The notes beneath the pieces were generated by a model. It ran no database searches. It was not told the origin of the DNA and saw nothing but the letters and a program-made list of their open reading frames with translations. A stretch of 64,000 bases of DNA from Candidatus Fervidifonticultor sextus (lineage in GTDB: Bacteria; Sysuimicrobiota; Sysuimicrobiia; Sysuimicrobiales; Humicultoraceae), in contig JAVKHQ010000004.1 of the NCBI GenBank assembly GCA_031459875.1, forward strand, positions 32,001 to 96,000, in the 5' to 3' direction. Every line of letters begins with the position of its first letter. Within the stretch, counting starts at the first letter, position 1. The translations under genes were made by a program, and so were the position numbers. Shown piece after piece: positions 1 to 23,066 of this stretch.

Positions 1-403
1 CCAGCGGGTCCGACAACACCAGGTCGGCCCCAAAGGCGCGCATGATGCCCTTGCGTTCCTCGCTGGCATGGCCCGGCACCACCAGCGTCACCCGGTAACC
101 CTTGACCGCGCCGATCATGGCGTAGGCGATCCCCGCGTTCCCGCTGGTGGAGTCCAGGATCGTGCGGGGGGTCCTCCCCGGGCCGGGAAGCCGGCCGTCG
201 CGCTCGGCGTCCTCGATGATGCGCAGGACCGGGCGGTCCTTCACCGATCCGCCAGGATTGAAACTCTCCAGTTTCGCATAGAGTTCCACCTGAGCGGGGA
301 GGTTTCCGATGCGGCGGATCGGGACGAGCGGGGTGTTGCCAATGAGCGCCAGCAGACCCGTCCCGATCGGTGCAGACGGCCCCGGCATCATGCGGTAGGC
401 CAT
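1..403 (-). CDS. cysM: PLP-dependent cysteine synthase family protein (CysM-like, probable O-phosphoserine sulfhydrylase); 5' part only, runs off the window
   Basis: Manual translation from ATG at 403 gives MAYRMMPG...IGNTPLV...YAKLESFNPGGSVKDR...DSTSGNAGIAYAMIGAVKGY...ASEERKGIMRAFGADLVLSDP. It has the PLP-lysine SVKDR and TSGN motifs, and a TGATG overlap with the upstream gene. Confidence 0.92.
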   Translation of the reverse strand, partial: MAYRMMPGPSAPIGTGLLALIGNTPLVPIRRIGNLPAQVELYAKLESFNPGGSVKDRPVLRIIEDAERDGRLPGPGRTPRTILDSTSGNAGIAYAMIGAVKGYRVTLVVPGHASEERKGIMRAFGADLVLSDPL

Positions 404-1254
404 CACTCGTCGTAGAGGACCGTGGGTTCCGGGTAGTGGCGGACGCGGTGTTCCAGCAGCCGCGCGCGGATCACCTGATCGAAACGCGCCTGTTTCACGG
501 CGGTTGGCTCGGGACCGGCCAGTAGCGCCAGATCCACATTCACCCGCAGGGCGCGCTGAGGGATGATGTGGCGGCTGATGCCGCTGGGAAGTTTGACCGG
601 GAGGCGCGCGATCGCGCGGATGTCGGCCTTGGTAAACCTCGGGAACAGCACGAGGGCCGCGGCCCGGCCGTACTCCTCGGCCAGCGCATGGAGGTCGGCA
701 GATGGAACCCGGTAGATCGGCGTCCGGCCGACATACCGGGCGACCACCTCGCCCAGCGCCCGGACGCGGTCGGCAAACTCGCCGGCGACGCGCAGACCCC
801 GAGCCGCCGCCGCGGTCACCAGGCCGCAGACGAGGGTGCCGTGCTCCAACTCCTCGCGCACGGCCTCTGGCGGCATCGTCTGCCACTGCGCCCCCACCAT
901 CGCGTCACCCGCCACGAGCAGCCCGTCATCTTGCAACAGGTGGGCCCAGACATCCAGGCGGACCGCCTGATCGTCGTAGTCGACCACCTGGACGGCCTGA
1001 TGGGGGAGGCCGGCCTGCTGGAGGGCGGTGACGCGATTGGCGCCGTCCAGCACGACAAATGTCTGGGCATCCATCGGCGCCACAATGGGGGGATTGCGGA
1101 GGACGCCGTCGGCCGTCAGCGCCTTCGCCAGCCGCTCCACCCGGGCGGGGTCGCATGCTTCGTGGAGCAGCAGTGCTCCCGACGGCACGATGCGCAGGTC
1201 GGGCAGGCGCACGCCGCTGGCGACGCGCGCCTGATGGGGCTGCACCCGCGTCAT
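403..1254 (-). CDS. ParB/Srx-fold protein, SbnI/SerK-like free L-serine kinase
   Basis: LLHE..DP.R...L...L..DGVLRNPPIV...FVVLDGANR at the N-terminus, W-x-H after the ParB core, LPSGISRH.I..R.L.V.V.L.LL, and a C-terminal R.Y.E...L..E. This follows the layout of staphylococcal SbnI as I recall it. Confidence 0.72.
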   Translation of the reverse strand: MTRVQPHQARVASGVRLPDLRIVPSGALLLHEACDPARVERLAKALTADGVLRNPPIVAPMDAQTFVVLDGANRVTALQQAGLPHQAVQVVDYDDQAVRLDVWAHLLQDDGLLVAGDAMVGAQWQTMPPEAVREELEHGTLVCGLVTAAAARGLRVAGEFADRVRALGEVVARYVGRTPIYRVPSADLHALAEEYGRAAALVLFPRFTKADIRAIARLPVKLPSGISRHIIPQRALRVNVDLALLAGPEPTAVKQARFDQVIRARLLEHRVRHYPEPTVLYDE

Positions 1255-1547
1255 GGTCTCGGCCGGGCTGCAGCGATGCCGCCGGCCATGGCAGGGAGGA
1301 TGGCCACCTCGTCGGCAGGTGCCAGGGGCGTCTGCAACCCGTCGCGCTGGCGGATCTCCGTGGAATTGACAAAGACGTTGACGTAGGTGCGCAGCGATCC
1401 GGATTCGTCGAGCAGGTAGCTGCGCACGCCCGGGTGGGCGGCGTCGAGCCGGTCCAGCAACTCGCCGACCGTCGCCGCGTCGACCTGGAGGCGGGCCTGC
1501 CCGCCCGTCAGGCGCCGCAGCGGTGCGGGAATCAGCACGATCGCCAT
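1251..1547 (-). CDS. Ubiquitin-like sulfur carrier protein (MoaD/ThiS/CysO family) with an 8-aa tail after the Gly-Gly
   Basis: MAIVLIPAPLRRLTGGQ...TVGELLDRLDAAHPG...LRTYVNVFVN..EIR..DGLQTPLAPADEVAILPAMAGG-IAAARPRP. True start is the ATG at 1547. Confidence 0.9.
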   Translation of the reverse strand: MAIVLIPAPLRRLTGGQARLQVDAATVGELLDRLDAAHPGVRSYLLDESGSLRTYVNVFVNSTEIRQRDGLQTPLAPADEVAILPAMAGGIAAARPRP

Positions 1548-1551
1548 GACG

Positions 1552-2280
1552 CTACGCCCCGGCCGACACCTGCTCCCGGGAGGCGGCCTCGACCGCCGAC
1601 AGCGCGGCGGCGACCGCCGGGAGGGACATGCGCTCCAGCGAAATTCGAAACGCGGCGGCGAACCGGGCCGCATACGCGCGGCGGACCTCGCCCAGGTCCA
1701 CGGCCCGACCCAGGACGGCGGCCATGGAGGTCACCGGCAGGCCGAGCCCGCACGGGTTGATCACGCGGTAGGCGTCGAGATCGGTGGTCACGTTCAGCGC
1801 GAACCCGTGCATCGTGACGCGGCGCTTGACGGCCACGCCCATCGCGGCGATCTTGGCGTCCCCCACCCAGACGCCGGGGTACCCCGGCCGCCGGCCGGCA
1901 GTGATGCCGAACCCGGCCAGGGTGTCGATTACCGTGCCTTCGAGGGTCCGCATGAACCGTCCGATGTCTTCGTCCAGACGGCAAAGATCCAGGATGGGAT
2001 AGCCGACCAGTTGCCCCGGCCCGTGGTAGGTCACGCTGCCGCCGCGCTCGACGTCGTACACTTCGATCCCCCAGTCGGCGAGCCGCTCGCGCGGGACCAG
2101 GAGGTGGGCGTCCTCCGCGCTGCGGCCCAGGGTGAGGACGGGCGCATGCTCCAGCAGGATGAGGACATCAGGAATGCGGTCGGCCTGCCGGGCCCGCACC
2201 AGCGCGCGCTGCAGGGCCCAGATCTCCGCATAGGGGCGGGGGCCGTCGTCCAGGTCGAGCAGCCAGGCCACGGACCTCAT
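1552..2280 (-). CDS. lipB: Lipoyl(octanoyl) transferase
   Basis: LLEHAPVLTLGR, ERGGSVTYHGPGQLVGYPI, KIAAMGVAV, HGFALNV, INPCGL. Confidence 0.95.
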   Translation of the reverse strand: MRSVAWLLDLDDGPRPYAEIWALQRALVRARQADRIPDVLILLEHAPVLTLGRSAEDAHLLVPRERLADWGIEVYDVERGGSVTYHGPGQLVGYPILDLCRLDEDIGRFMRTLEGTVIDTLAGFGITAGRRPGYPGVWVGDAKIAAMGVAVKRRVTMHGFALNVTTDLDAYRVINPCGLGLPVTSMAAVLGRAVDLGEVRRAYAARFAAAFRISLERMSLPAVAAALSAVEAASREQVSAGA

Positions 2281-3422: not shown

Positions 3423-5053
3423 GCGACCTCCAGTCCCCTGGCCCGCTCGCTGCGGAGCAGCATGGCCAGGGGCAACGCGGCGCAGGCAATCAGCAGCAGA
3501 CTCGGGAGCGCCGCCTGCGTGTAGATGCCGTCGGTGGCCGACAGCCAGGTCCGCACGGGAAGCGTATCAAAGCCGGCAGGCCGCAACAAGAGATTGATCG
3601 GGAGGTCCTTGAGCACGTTGAGGAAGACCAGGGCCCACCCGGCGATCACGCTGGGGCGCAACAGCGGCAGGTCCACGCGCAGGAAGGCCCGCACCGGGCG
3701 CTCGCCCAGACCCCGCGCCGCTTCGCCCAGCCGCTGCGGGATCTGCAGAAGGCCGGTCTCCACCGCCCGCAGTCCCTGGGCCATGTAGCGCACCATGAAG
3801 GCGCCGATCATGACCGGCAGGGTGCCGTACAGCCACGGCGCCACCGTGTTGGTCAAAAACGCCACTCCCAGGACGATGACGATCCCCGGCAGCGCATAGC
3901 CGGCCTGTCCCAGGGCCCAGATGGCCCAGGCCGGCCAGCCCGGCGACCGGACGCGCAGGTAGGCCGGCGGGACGGCCAGGCCCACGATGACCGTGGACGC
4001 CAGCACCCCCAGCAGCAGGCTCTCGCCGGCGGCCTTCCACGGGCTGGGCGTGCTCGCTGCCCACAGCCGCTCCGCGCCGGATGGACGCACCGCGCCGGCG
4101 TACGCCCAGCTCCCCAGCAGGATCACCGGGAGGACGAGGGCCAGGACGACGGCCGCCGCGACCGTGGCCAGCGCTGCGAGGCGGTAGCGACCGAGCCGGA
4201 CCGCCTCCGGCGGCCTCCACGACGCATCGCTCTGGTGGTATCGGGCGCGGCCGCGCAGCCGGGCTTCCAGCGCCAGGAACGCCAGGACCAGCAGGATGGC
4301 CGCCGTCCCCAGGGCGGCCGCCGCCGGACGCCGGTAGAACGCGGTGAGCTGGTAGTACAACTCGGTCGCCAGCGTGTCGTACCGCAGCAGCACCACGGTG
4401 CCGAAATCGGCCAGCGCGTACAGCGCGGGGAAGAACAGGCCGGCGCCGATCGCCGGTCGGATCAGCGGCAGCGTCACCGTCCAGAAGATCCGCCCCGACG
4501 ACAGCCCGCTGGCTCGGGCGACCTCGTCCAGGCTGCGGCTGACCCGCCGCAGCGCCGCCGAGGTGAGCAGGAAGCTGTAGGGGTACGTGTAGAGGGCGAT
4601 GACGAAGGCGGAACCGGTCAGGCCGTGGGGCGGCAGGGCCAGGCCGATCAGGCGATCGAGGATCCCACCCCGGCTCAGCAGGTGCAGGTAGACGATGGCG
4701 CCGATGTAGGGCGGAATGGCCAGCGGCAGCGCGAGGGCGATCCTCCAGGCGGCGCGCCACGGCAGGTCCGTCCGCTCCACGAGAAACGCGAGCCCCGCGC
4801 CCATCGCGGCGGAGCCGACGCTGGAGACCGCGGCCAGCGCCAGTGTCGAGACCAGGAGGGTCATCGTCTGCGAGCCGGACAGGGTGAGCAGGGTCTCGCG
4901 GCCGTCCAGCAGCGCGCGGGCCACGAGGAAAACCATGGGGCCGGCGATCACCGCGGCCACCGCAGCCGACGGTACCAGCAGGGCCCACGGCACCGGCCGG
5001 CGGCCGGACCGCCACAGCGCACGGACGGCGATGCTGGCGCTACCTGAACGCAC
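3419..5053 (-). CDS. fbpB: Fe3+-type ABC transporter permease with two EAA modules; start uncertain (GTG 5053 or ATC 5032)
   Basis: ERTDLPWR, LPLAIPPYIGA, YPYSFL, DEVARASG and EAARGLG loops, LLRPAGFDTL. Confidence 0.88.
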   Translation of the reverse strand: MRSGSASIAVRALWRSGRRPVPWALLVPSAAVAAVIAGPMVFLVARALLDGRETLLTLSGSQTMTLLVSTLALAAVSSVGSAAMGAGLAFLVERTDLPWRAAWRIALALPLAIPPYIGAIVYLHLLSRGGILDRLIGLALPPHGLTGSAFVIALYTYPYSFLLTSAALRRVSRSLDEVARASGLSSGRIFWTVTLPLIRPAIGAGLFFPALYALADFGTVVLLRYDTLATELYYQLTAFYRRPAAAALGTAAILLVLAFLALEARLRGRARYHQSDASWRPPEAVRLGRYRLAALATVAAAVVLALVLPVILLGSWAYAGAVRPSGAERLWAASTPSPWKAAGESLLLGVLASTVIVGLAVPPAYLRVRSPGWPAWAIWALGQAGYALPGIVIVLGVAFLTNTVAPWLYGTLPVMIGAFMVRYMAQGLRAVETGLLQIPQRLGEAARGLGERPVRAFLRVDLPLLRPSVIAGWALVFLNVLKDLPINLLLRPAGFDTLPVRTWLSATDGIYTQAALPSLLLIACAALPLAMLLRSERARGLEVA

Positions 5054-20112: not shown

Positions 20113-23066
20113 CCGCTCACCCCCCCTGGTGCAGGGACATCAGGCCGGGACGCCCGGGCCATGGCGTCCGCCAGGACCTCCACCAGGTGCTTCGCCCGCC
20201 GGCCCGTCCCGTGGGCGATCTGCTGCCGGCACGAGACGCCCATCGCCACGACCTCGGCGTCGGCGGGCAGCCGCCGCACCGCGGGCAGCAGCCGGCGCTC
20301 GCCGATGGCCATGGACAACGCGTAGTGCTCGCGCTCGAAGCCGAACGAGCCGGCCATCCCGCAGCAGCCGGAATCCACCTCCTCCACCTCAAACCCGGCG
20401 GCACGGAGCACGCCCACAGCGGCGCGGGTCCCCACGATCGCCTTCTGGTGGCAGTGGCCGTGGAAGAGCACCCGGCGCCCGCCGGCCGCCAGAGACATCG
20501 GCCGCCCCCCATCGGCGCGGGATCCGGGCCAGCCGTGCGCCTGCACGTGATGGGCCAGGAACTCGTCGATGAGCAGGGTGTGGTCCGCCACGAGCCGCGC
20601 CTGGGGCCCCGGGACCAGGTCTGGAACTTCATCCCGGAATGTCAGGATGCAGGACGGCTCGCAGCCGACGATCGAGACGCCGGCCCGGGCAAAGGGGAAC
20701 AGGCGCTGGAGGTTGGCCTGTGCGTGCGCTTTCGCGCTCCGAAGCAGCCCCTTGCTGATCATCGGCCGGCCGCAGCAGTCCACCGTCGGGACGATGACCG
20801 CGTAGCCAAGCCCTTCCAGCACCGAAACCGCGGCGCGGCCGATCCCGGGATCGTTGTAGCGCAGGAACGTGTCGGCGAAAAGGACGACCTGCGGCGGGGC
20901 GCCGCCTGCCGGCGACCGTGCGGCCAGGTGCCGGGCCCACCAGGCGTCGAACGTGGGGCGGGCAAACGTCGGCAGCGGTCGGCGCCGGTCGATGCCGGCT
21001 GCGCGCTCCAGCAACCACCGGGCAGGGGTCGACTGCACCAGCCACGTGGAGACGGGCGCCAGGCGGGTTCCCAGGCGGTTGAGCCGGTGGATGCCCCCGA
21101 AGAGGCGGACGCGCAGCGGCGCGCCGTGGGCCTCGTGGTATCCGGCCAGGAACTCGTACTTCAGTTTGGCCATGTCCACGTTGGCCGGGCACTCGGCCTT
21201 GCACCCCTTGCACTCCAGACACAGGTCCAGGGCGTCGTAGAGGCGGCGGCCGGTCAACTCGGAGGGCGGCAGGCCCCCCGACAGCACCGCGCGCAGGAGG
21301 TTGGCCCGGCCCCGCGTCGAGTGTTCCTCCTCCCGCGTGACCATGTAGGAGGGGCACATCGTCCCCTCGGTGGTCTTGCGGCAGGCGCCAATCCCGCTGC
21401 ACAGTTCGACCGCCGCCGCCATCCCGCCGTCGGCACTCCAGTCGAAGTGTGTCCGGACGGACAGCGTCCGGTACGACGGCCCGTAGCGCAGGCCCTCGGT
21501 CATGGCCGGGGCCTCGACGATCTTGCCGGGGTTCATCACCCCCTGGGGATCGAAGGCCGCCTTGATGGCGCGGAACGCCTGGTAGAGCCTGGGGCCGAAG
21601 AACCGCTCGACGAACCAGCCGCGCACAATGCCGTCGCCGTGCTCGCCGCTCATCGTCCCGCCGAACTCGATGACCAGGTCCCCGACGGCCTCGGCGACCG
21701 CCTGCATGGTGGCGATCTGCCGCGCGTCCTTGAGGTCCAGAAGGGGCCGGACGTGGAGGCAGCCGACGCTGGCGTGGGCGTAGAAGGCCGCGCGCAGCCC
21801 GTGGCGGTCGAGCACCTCGCGGAACCGGCGGATGTAGGGCGCCAGGCGCTCCGGGGGCACCGCGGTGTCCTCGACGAAGGCGATCGGCTTGGCATCGCCC
21901 TTGATCCCCTGCAGGAGCCCCTGGCCGGCCTTGCGCACCCGCCAGATGTTGTCCTGGGAGAGGGGGTCCAGCGCGCGGACGGTCGCGTACCCCATCCCCG
22001 CCTGGGCCAGCGAGCGCTCCATGGTGCTGAGCCGGTCCAGGACCGCGTCGCGCTCGTCTCCGGCGAACTCCACGACCAACAGCGCGTCCGGGTCGCCTTC
22101 CACGAAGGTCATGCGGCGCGCGTACTCCATCTGGGCCCGGGTCAACTCCAGGATCATCCGGTCGATCAGTTCCACCGCCGAGGGGCCGTGGGAGAGAATC
22201 GTCTGGGTCGCCTCCAGGGCCTCGAGCAGGTCGCGGAAGTGGACCACGGCGACCGCCGTGTGCTGCGGGCGCGGCACGATGCGCACCGTCGCCTCGGTGA
22301 CGACCGCCAGGGTTCCCTCCGATCCCACGATGAGGCGGGAGAGGTTGAACGGCCGCAGGAACATCTCCGGGAGGTTGTACCCGCTGACGCGCCGGAGGAT
22401 CTTCGGGTAGCGGCGGTCGATCTCGTCGCGGTTGGCCTCCGCGATCTCGAGCACCGTCCGGTAGAGACGACCCTCACGGGACGGCTCCTGCCGCACAGCC
22501 GCCAGCGCCACCTCGTCCAGCGGCCCGGGCGCGATCTCCGTGCCGTCGGCGAGCAGCGCGCGCAGGCCCACCACGTGGTCGACCATCTTGCCGTAGACGA
22601 TGGAGCGCGCCCCGCAGGAGTTGTTGCCGATCATGCCCCCCAGCGTGGCACGGTTGCTGGTGGCGGTGTCCGGACCCAGCCGCATCCCATGCGGGGCCAG
22701 CGCGCCGTTGAGCACGTCCTGGACGACCCCGGGCTGCACGCGGGCGACTCCACGGCTCGGGTCGATCTCCAGGATCCGATCCATGTACTTGGAACAGTCG
22801 ATCACCACAGCCCGGCCCACCGACTGCCCCGCCAGGCTCGTCCCGGCGCCGCGGGGGAGCACGGGGACCCCTGCCTCGGCACACCGCCGTACCGTCGCCG
22901 CGATGTCGTCCGCGTCGCGCGGGACGACCACGCCGATGGGCAGGATCTGGTAGAGGCTGGCATCGGTGCTGTAGAGGATGCGGGAAACCTGGTCGAAGCG
23001 CACCTCGCCCCTGACGGAGGCGGCGAGCGCTTTCGTCAGACGGTCGAAGTCCCGGTCACCCATCAT
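20109..23066 (-). CDS. FAD-binding and (4Fe-4S)-binding oxidoreductase (GlcD-GlcF fusion, YdiJ-like 2-hydroxyacid dehydrogenase)
   Basis: YSTDASLY, RGAGTSLAGQ, ATLGGMIGNN, GSEGTL, GEHGDG, CSG.GAC, CLECKGCKAECP, CCG motifs. Confidence 0.92.
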   Translation of the reverse strand: MMGDRDFDRLTKALAASVRGEVRFDQVSRILYSTDASLYQILPIGVVVPRDADDIAATVRRCAEAGVPVLPRGAGTSLAGQSVGRAVVIDCSKYMDRILEIDPSRGVARVQPGVVQDVLNGALAPHGMRLGPDTATSNRATLGGMIGNNSCGARSIVYGKMVDHVVGLRALLADGTEIAPGPLDEVALAAVRQEPSREGRLYRTVLEIAEANRDEIDRRYPKILRRVSGYNLPEMFLRPFNLSRLIVGSEGTLAVVTEATVRIVPRPQHTAVAVVHFRDLLEALEATQTILSHGPSAVELIDRMILELTRAQMEYARRMTFVEGDPDALLVVEFAGDERDAVLDRLSTMERSLAQAGMGYATVRALDPLSQDNIWRVRKAGQGLLQGIKGDAKPIAFVEDTAVPPERLAPYIRRFREVLDRHGLRAAFYAHASVGCLHVRPLLDLKDARQIATMQAVAEAVGDLVIEFGGTMSGEHGDGIVRGWFVERFFGPRLYQAFRAIKAAFDPQGVMNPGKIVEAPAMTEGLRYGPSYRTLSVRTHFDWSADGGMAAAVELCSGIGACRKTTEGTMCPSYMVTREEEHSTRGRANLLRAVLSGGLPPSELTGRRLYDALDLCLECKGCKAECPANVDMAKLKYEFLAGYHEAHGAPLRVRLFGGIHRLNRLGTRLAPVSTWLVQSTPARWLLERAAGIDRRRPLPTFARPTFDAWWARHLAARSPAGGAPPQVVLFADTFLRYNDPGIGRAAVSVLEGLGYAVIVPTVDCCGRPMISKGLLRSAKAHAQANLQRLFPFARAGVSIVGCEPSCILTFRDEVPDLVPGPQARLVADHTLLIDEFLAHHVQAHGWPGSRADGGRPMSLAAGGRRVLFHGHCHQKAIVGTRAAVGVLRAAGFEVEEVDSGCCGMAGSFGFEREHYALSMAIGERRLLPAVRRLPADAEVVAMGVSCRQQIAHGTGRRAKHLVEVLADAMARASRPDVPAPGGVSG

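Follow-up and report, generated by a model that had tools for sequence, protein, structure and literature searches.

Free-serine kinases have been described from a few archaea and from siderophore clusters, and include SerK of Thermococcus kodakarensis, which provides O-phosphoserine to a cysteine synthase, and SbnI of Staphylococcus. The authors of the T. kodakarensis study saw no clear-cut bacterial homologues of SerK (PMC5120207; papers are cited here by PMC number and for the portions of their text that were available). The mec-cysO-cysM pathway of Mycobacterium tuberculosis uses a sulfur carrier protein, and operons with a carrier, a JAB protein, an E1 enzyme and a cysteine synthase outside the actinobacteria were listed in 2006, in a paper whose available text leaves ParB unmentioned (PMC1779556). 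Here we describe a locus at the left end of a 64,000-nucleotide stretch (hereafter the window) of the genome of Candidatus Fervidifonticultor sextus, contig JAVKHQ010000004.1, positions 32,001 to 96,000 (C34:32001-96000 in our numbering); the DNA to the left of the window was also read. On the minus strand, the order of the genes is lipB, a cysO-like carrier gene, a gene for a 283-aa protein, cysM, mec and rrf2. From sequence and context, the 283-aa protein is likely to be a free L-serine kinase that feeds a carrier-dependent CysM, with release by Mec and recharging of the carrier by MoeZ. The kinase step itself, from serine and ATP or ADP to O-phosphoserine, is very likely.

The fold of the 283-aa protein is that of SbnI and SerK. 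A phmmer search of the PDB placed SbnI first (E 3.6e-12), followed by SerK-type proteins, and a profile of 44 homologues gave E 4e-28 for SbnI and 7.8e-11 for the SerK type. With the AlphaFold model (pLDDT 91.3), SbnI/SerK-type entries occupied Foldseek ranks 1-9 (E 3.6e-17 to 9.4e-14, TM 0.61-0.73). VIA-align returned SbnI at Z 22.6 (243 aligned residues) and SerK at Z 21.9 (221 aligned), the next best value being 7.6. The similarity to SbnI and SerK is beyond chance, and the whole-length match to SbnI noted in the first-pass annotation, which was made from the sequence alone, was borne out. ParB, Noc and sulfiredoxin align with the model over about 80-90 residues only (Foldseek), and the protein does not group with them. 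A role as a ParB partition protein was rejected on the basis of a PF02195 score of 16.4 bits (cut-off 26.3), the lack of any helix-turn-helix family and the lack of a match beyond the nucleotide-binding domain; a sulfiredoxin role was rejected on the short alignment. The expected mislabelling by automated pipelines is seen in the databases, where the gene is named 'ParB domain' or 'Spo0J' and its fused form 'molybdopterin synthase sulfur carrier'. As a separate observation, the N-terminal domain of PDB 1wkv, an O-phosphoserine sulfhydrylase, aligns with the ParB-fold domain of the kinase at VIA-align rank 7 (73 residues), which is possibly a relic of a kinase-synthase fusion, the Z of 6.1 being within a range that may reflect chance.

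The motifs said to track SbnI are all present (LLHE, NPPIV, LDGANR, WxH, PSGISRH and RHYPE), but Asn73 replaces a histidine (DGANR here, DGVHR or DGHHR in SbnI and SerK), and the histidine of SRH agrees with SerK (TRH), not with SbnI (TRF). In the profile alignment, Glu32, Asp70, Arg74, Trp103, Ser227 and His229 correspond to Glu30, Asp69, Arg73, Trp102, Thr223 and His225 of SerK. We take Asp69, in the DG motif, to have a metal-binding role, and His72, Trp102, Thr223 and His225 presumably line the serine site, where Ser/Thr227 and His229 are retained. Glu30 is the residue altered in the E30A and E30Q structures (PDB titles of 5x0e and 5x0j). The catalytic glutamate of the HE motif and the aspartate of the LDG motif, both singled out in the first-pass annotation, are present and conserved in every homologue that covers them: Glu32 in 262 of 266 aligned homologues, with four gaps (262/262 covering the position), and Asp70 in 265 of 266, with one gap (265/265). 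Arg74 (one gap) and Trp103 are likewise kept in 265 of 266. By its scores against the equivalog models of SbnI and SerK, the protein belongs to a separate subfamily of the SbnI/SerK structural family and is an orthologue of neither.

The distribution of the kinase was surveyed in 80 genomes of the phylum that are at least 80% complete, including the host (G000) and two unpublished genomes (G013, G018); related genomes in this set are not independent. The kinase, found in 76 of them, counts among the core genes of the phylum; CysM is found in 70 and a CysO-type carrier in 73. The synteny survey proposed earlier placed the kinase gene beside cysM, within 300 bases, in 68 of the 69 genomes having both, the exception sitting at a contig end. 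A second survey covered the best 80 of 514 relatives' loci in GTDB, many of which are cut by contig ends. There, the nearest named relatives belong to Ca. Sysuimicrobiota (CSP1-3, frequently filed under Armatimonadota), and the farther ones mostly to Chloroflexota. In these loci, cysM directly follows the kinase gene in 42, the gene of cystathionine beta-synthase (CBS) directly precedes it in 33, and all three of carrier, CysM and Mec occur in 34. The conservation of the triplet stood in part: the exact order cysO-kinase-cysM occurs in 13 of the 80, and a longer full order, lipB, gamma-lyase, cysO, CBS, kinase, cysM, mec, rrf2, is common. Judged by gene order, the triplet of the window is a reduced form of this cluster, minus the transsulfuration pair (CBS and gamma-lyase). 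Some Chloroflexota combine the kinase with cysO, a rhodanese or moeZ, and cysM, and others have CBS-kinase alone. A plasmid search returned just distant SbnI-like proteins from Bacillus and its kin (83 records, of which the 30 listed are 21-27% identical). On one Bacillus cereus plasmid (L207, NZ_CP009606.1, 5992-8676), an SbnI-like 'ParB N-terminal domain' gene stands with a DMT transporter and a pyridoxal-phosphate enzyme; from its gene content, this set is probably another pair of serine kinase and O-phosphoserine enzyme.

The gene complement of the host, whose genome is 96.2% complete, leaves few other routes to an activated serine. No cysE, full SerA, serB, DUF1015 or phosphoadenosine phosphosulfate reductase was found in the genome, nor a copy of the operon CBS, for which only a second 319-aa PALP protein at 40% was seen. 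GlyA is present, as are a MoeZ with a rhodanese domain, which had been predicted and is encoded away from the locus, and a rhodanese adjoining a YeeE-type transporter. Because neither the O-acetylserine route nor the SerA route is present, the kinase is the sole recognisable supplier of O-phosphoserine or activated serine in the host. The claim that the system operates without CysE agrees with its absence from the host and its presence in 1/80 genomes of the phylum. A class V transaminase gene lies 38 bases ahead of serS in the host; two sister-genus genomes have a 77% identical orthologue, then serA, then serS. Because serA is missing between the transaminase gene and serS, where the sister-genus genomes have it, this comparison of gene order indicates that serA was lost in the host lineage, and SerA is found in 0/6 genomes of the host genus (g1). 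The retained transaminase is probably of the SerC2 type, judging from its position (the name SerC2 is taken from the GapMind supplement). The statement that the operon dispenses with SerA and SerC thus holds for SerA in the genus, but full-length SerA is found in 45/80 genomes of the phylum and a likely SerC2-type transaminase is kept in the host. Scavenging of serine is not required, as glyA is present, but uptake remains a possible source. Two further class V aminotransferase genes of the host (C43 about 3850-4980 and C23 about 20970-21720) are apparently interrupted by a frameshift or stop.

Among PDB entries, the carrier is most similar to CysO in 3dwg (E 7.5e-15). The first-pass annotation took it as CysO/MoaD-like without remark on its terminus and overlooked that Gly89-Gly90 is followed by an 8-residue tail, so that there is no Gly-Gly terminus. 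Across nine aligned carriers, AMAGG is invariant and the tail variable. Among the 44 GTDB loci with a carrier, none has a Gly-Gly end: 34 carry tails of 1-25 residues, nine read into CBS and one has an apparent frameshift. The nine in-frame carrier-CBS fusions (L010, L020, L023, L025, L030, L032, L039, L044, L046), some with no linker after Gly-Gly, include L025, in which the partner was confirmed as CBS. The carrier is also fused to the kinase in eight of 120 listed homologues, which are 370-376 aa long, with an internal AMAGG and three different linkers; the DNA of L177 reads lipB, fused cysO-kinase, cysM. A quick, unfinished kinase tree with long branches scatters the CysO fusions over three positions and sets the SerA fusions apart as a group. 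Other fusions were sought by a profile search in the best 150 of 1881 matches at E up to 0.001, in which 14 longer proteins were scanned. One kinase has an N-terminal JAB (Mec) domain and eight are joined to a 2-hydroxyacid dehydrogenase, for which phosphoglycerate dehydrogenase was the best name in the three tested, below cut-off. These SerA-like fusions (P0202, P0213, P0225, P0247, P0259, P0261, P0263, P0269) exhibit DGATR in the kinase domain, and some of their dehydrogenase parts look degenerate or partial. A single-protein search returned no longer homologues, which is uninformative, since the profile search shows that fusions exist. CysM reads on into Mec in 7/46 loci.

Thiocarboxylation is impossible while the Gly-Gly is buried, so maturation of the carrier would have to be carried out by Mec. 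By analogy with the JAMM cleavage of MoaD-MoaE fusions, a precedent for precursor processing (PMC8832034), Mec would cleave the carrier precursor after Gly-Gly. The host itself encodes a MoaD-MoaE fusion (C23 about 92800-93550, minus strand), which is likely a further substrate of the JAMM peptidase; in another genus of the phylum, g10, such a fusion is suggested solely by frame length, and a motif check gave nothing.

With regard to CysM, Arg231 aligns with Arg220 of M. tuberculosis CysM, which we take to have a role in phosphoserine binding, and with Arg210 of E. coli CysM. The position is mostly lysine in relatives. The CysK of T. kodakarensis likewise has a lysine at this basic phosphate-binding position (PMC5120207), and a review links E. 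coli Arg210 to thiosulfate binding (PMC9547175). A basic residue at the Arg220 position is common to thiosulfate-using CysM and hence not diagnostic, and the sulfur donor of CysM is not fixed by sequence alone. The genomic context, namely joint loss with the carrier, fusion with Mec and the presence of MoeZ, suggests that CysM depends on the carrier; carrier, JAMM peptidase and MoeZ are all encoded in the host genome. No special residue pointing to an O-phosphoserine-using CBS was seen in CBS, whose loop is of the ordinary type.

The observed genes, fold, residues, synteny, fusions and gene absences suggest the following activities. Serine would derive from glycine via GlyA, or from uptake. 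The kinase would phosphorylate it to O-phosphoserine with either ATP or ADP as donor. Through elimination of phosphate and addition of the thiocarboxylated carrier, CysM would then form cysteine bound to the carrier. Mec would cut after Gly-Gly once for carrier maturation, removing the tail or, in some relatives, the fused enzyme, and again in each cycle, freeing cysteine, and MoeZ would re-sulfurate the carrier. The steps of CysM, carrier, Mec and MoeZ are modelled on the mycobacterial pathway (PMC3227635).

The first-pass reading, a serine kinase joined to a CysO-dependent cysteine synthase using O-phosphoserine, agrees with the fold, residues, synteny, fusions, Mec, MoeZ and the missing cysE, but it does not extend to genus g10, where the kinase is retained while CysM and CysO are missing. 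This genus is the first of several observations that weigh against the proposed role. All seven of its genomes (G020-G026, 85-97% complete) have an intact kinase and the order lipB, kinase, mec, rrf2 (for example L094, L096 and L098), and searches for CysM (E 1e-60), for a CysO-type carrier (E 1e-12) and for full SerA were negative in all seven. The kinase is present there in the absence of CysM and CysO, which were lost jointly; therefore, it has some role besides the supply of CysM. In the five of these genomes that were examined, the nearest match of the cysteine-synthase-like protein is PDB 5b53 (E 1.9e-128), presumably a cysteine-degrading Fusobacterium enzyme, and no O-phosphoserine consumer was recognisable. 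In one g10 genome, a gamma-lyase-CBS pair adjoins a second copy of the kinase, which is broken. The position corresponding to the histidine of SbnI and SerK (position 73) is asparagine in 216, threonine in 44 and histidine in one of the 266 homologues, and the protein scores far below the equivalog models of SbnI (NF033589, 58 bits, cut-off 350) and SerK (NF053625, 31.2 bits, cut-off 380). CysM scores 241 bits to the enterobacterial and 220 bits to the mycobacterial enzyme. SerA, in the 45 genomes that have it, is another source of O-phosphoserine, and three short 2-hydroxyacid dehydrogenases of the host, whose top scores are to glyoxylate reductase or related enzymes and all lie below cut-off, could hide SerA activity. 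No listed sulfur gene lies near the kinase in 14 of the best 80 GTDB loci (16 when two CBS-domain-only matches are discounted).

Among other explanations, the one that survives best, which we consider unlikely, is that the kinase mainly interconverts serine and phosphoserine, either as a SerB substitute that supplies CBS and translation or as the first step of serine assimilation via SerC and SerA, the supply of CysM being secondary. The absence of serB over cut-off from all 80 genomes of the phylum, other phosphoserine phosphatase families not having been searched, while SerA is found in 45, fits this explanation and adds to the points against ours. The explanation also fits the position of the kinase directly behind the serine-using CBS, with its ordinary loop, in 33 of the best GTDB loci, including several Chloroflexota that have no cysM. 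The SerA-kinase fusions point in the same direction, but they form a separate branch with DGATR. In addition, the SbnI-like DUF1015 family replaces serB, although the same text terms the reverse reaction thermodynamically unfavourable (PMC13759103). However, the kinase is kept in genera that have no SerA (g1 0/6, g10 0/7, g13 0/4), with no phosphoserine to dephosphorylate and no path to 3-phosphoglycerate, which argues that the forward direction matters.

Another explanation accepts the serine kinase and supposes that CysM uses thiosulfate or sulfide directly, giving S-sulfocysteine or cysteine as in enterobacterial CysM or mycobacterial CysK2, while the carrier and Mec are used for sulfur transfer to other ends. 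The nearest solved relatives of CysM are indeed enterobacterial, its basic residue corresponds to E. coli Arg210, which is said to bind thiosulfate (PMC9547175), the YeeE-type transporter of the host lies beside a rhodanese, and the host MoaD-MoaE fusion offers Mec other work. Moreover, four loci (L008, L011, L014, L121, two of which may be the same genome) exhibit kinase-cysM-mec with no cysO match nearby. We nevertheless judge direct sulfur use to be quite improbable, as carrier and CysM were lost jointly in g10, CysM is fused to Mec in some loci, CysO is the best solved match of the carrier, and genomes without an operon carrier have a second carrier elsewhere. Least probable is that a small molecule other than serine is the substrate, or that the protein is a regulator or scaffold, its location in the cluster being due to regulation; in favour of this, one may cite the change of histidine to asparagine or threonine in the active-site motif, its retention in g10 with no recognisable O-phosphoserine consumer, the regulatory role of SbnI (PMC7139808), its binding of heme and DNA, and the reported CTP binding by a SerK-like protein (PMC12704722). 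Against it, the catalytic Glu, Asp and Trp/Thr-Arg-His positions are conserved, the nameable fusion partners all belong to serine or cysteine metabolism, and the match to ParB is confined to the nucleotide-binding domain.

The features of the locus are collected in Table 1. The three minus-strand open reading frames of the first-pass annotation were verified in the sequence, as were both overlaps: the carrier stop and kinase start form ATGA, and the kinase stop and cysM start form TGATG. Both junctions are spanned, with 0 differences, by a contig from a sequencing run that is possibly the source of the assembly and hence not independent. The RNA pieces from sequencing runs are short, and none bridges a gene junction of the operon. 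The split arrangement of carrier, kinase and cysM also occurs in other genomes of the host genus. The JAMM peptidase (Mec) sought beyond the left edge was found directly downstream of cysM. A perfect TATAAT, spotted by eye, lies 7 bases ahead of the mec start (C34:31395-31400, minus strand); it is a probable leaderless internal promoter for mec-rrf2, and similar elements occur in 19/45 related loci, the whole host genome containing 77 TATAAT. A consensus promoter and terminator scan of the locus gave no match. The Rrf2 regulator scores 98.5 of the 195 bits required by the CymR model. The lipB gene begins the series, separated by 4 bases from the carrier gene, and it is a conserved neighbour by position, lying upstream in many related loci as well. 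ECF-sigma-like and RidA-like genes, named by eye from sequence likeness, follow rrf2 in many related loci and lie at about C34:29000-30420 in the host. RidA removes aminoacrylate, a reactive intermediate of CysM.

Table 1. Genes of the locus, in window coordinates unless a position on contig C34 is given.
Feature	Position	Strand	Basis
lipB octanoyltransferase	1552..2280	-	TIGR00214 152.4 bits, cut-off 83.55
CysO-like ubiquitin-fold sulfur carrier, 98 aa	1251..1547	-	Pfam ThiS E 7.4e-15
SbnI/SerK-fold protein, 283 aa, predicted free L-serine kinase	403..1254	-	phmmer, profile, Foldseek, VIA-align
CysM-type cysteine synthase, 5' part	1..403	-	whole gene 321 aa, C34:31438-32403; TIGR01138 365.8 bits, cut-off 394.2
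Mec-like JAMM peptidase, 137 aa	C34:30974-31387, left of window	-	Pfam Prok-JAB E 3.3e-28
Rrf2/CymR-like regulator, 143 aa	C34:30546-30977, left of window	-	TIGR00738 over cut-off

A wider and rather doubtful proposal is that, in a phylum without SerB and with CysE in 1/80 genomes, this third kinase subfamily both feeds cysteine synthase and balances serine and phosphoserine for CBS, while the carrier is never made mature, being translated either with a tail or, in the manner of ubiquitin precursors, fused to the kinase or to CBS, and one JAMM peptidase gates the pathway through polyprotein processing and cysteine release. If the proposed role of the kinase is true, it fills the cysteine gap of a widespread uncultured phylum, brings free-serine kinases into bacterial core metabolism and corrects the misleading annotation of the gene. 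The carrier-enzyme fusions are a simple test case for the processing of ubiquitin-like precursors in bacteria. The precedent for every chemical step limits the surprise. Elsewhere in the host genome (C67:50411-52900, plus strand; L091:2411-4900), a homoserine kinase, a PALP enzyme resembling threonine synthase and a second carrier, ending at Gly-Gly, are encoded in a row; this trio looks like the MetM/MetO route from phosphohomoserine to homocysteine, a parallel design of kinase, synthase and carrier.

Neither the coupling of the kinase to CysO and CysM nor the fusions of CysO with CBS or with the kinase were found described in the full-text literature searched, including the available text of PMC12704722, PMC7139808, PMC12910592 and PMC5424206; most subscription literature was outside this scope, and papers on SbnI and on SerK structures may mention such homologues. 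The supposition that the combination was new therefore stands for the coupling of kinase, CysO and Mec in bacteria, within the literature searched, but the route from serine via phosphoserine to cysteine is published for Thermococcus.

Compared with SbnI (PDB 5uje, 5ujd, 6nr6), the kinase described here shares the two-domain fold (TM 0.68-0.73, Z 22.6) and the HE, DG..R, WxH, G..R and C-terminal R.Y.E motifs, but it is only 20-23% identical, scores 58 bits where 350 are required and has Asn73 in place of histidine. Moreover, SbnI serves staphyloferrin B synthesis (SbnA), whereas this kinase sits in a cysteine cluster. With the SerK and CysK of T. kodakarensis (PDB 5x0b), the locus shares the fold (Z 21.9), the equivalence of Glu32 and Glu30, the histidine of TRH, the conversion of serine to O-phosphoserine and then cysteine, and the basic phosphate-binding residue, but SerK is archaeal, ADP-dependent and 17% identical, and neither carrier nor JAMM is mentioned in the available text (PMC5120207). 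The mec-cysO-cysM genes of M. tuberculosis, with MoeZ, provide the equivalents of the carrier, of Arg220, of the JAMM peptidase and of a MoeZ with a rhodanese domain, but that pathway is described, in the text available, without a kinase (PMC3227635). M. tuberculosis CysO ends at Gly-Gly, whereas the carrier here continues into a tail, or into a fused enzyme in relatives, and the host CysM is no closer to M. tuberculosis CysM than to E. coli CysM by bit score. DUF1015 (SerBK) also has an SbnI-like fold and is proposed as a bacterial serine kinase tied to serA (PMC13759103), but it is a different family: PF06245 gives no match to the kinase and none in the host. The MoaD-MoaE fusion cleaved by DR0402 (DRJAMM) is likewise a ubiquitin-fold carrier in linear fusion, released by a JAMM peptidase (PMC8832034), but the fused partner in the relatives studied here is the kinase or CBS, and cleavage is predicted. 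Each chemical step is thus known from one of these systems, and new here are the counts across the phylum, the deletion of serA, the fusions and the counter-example of g10.

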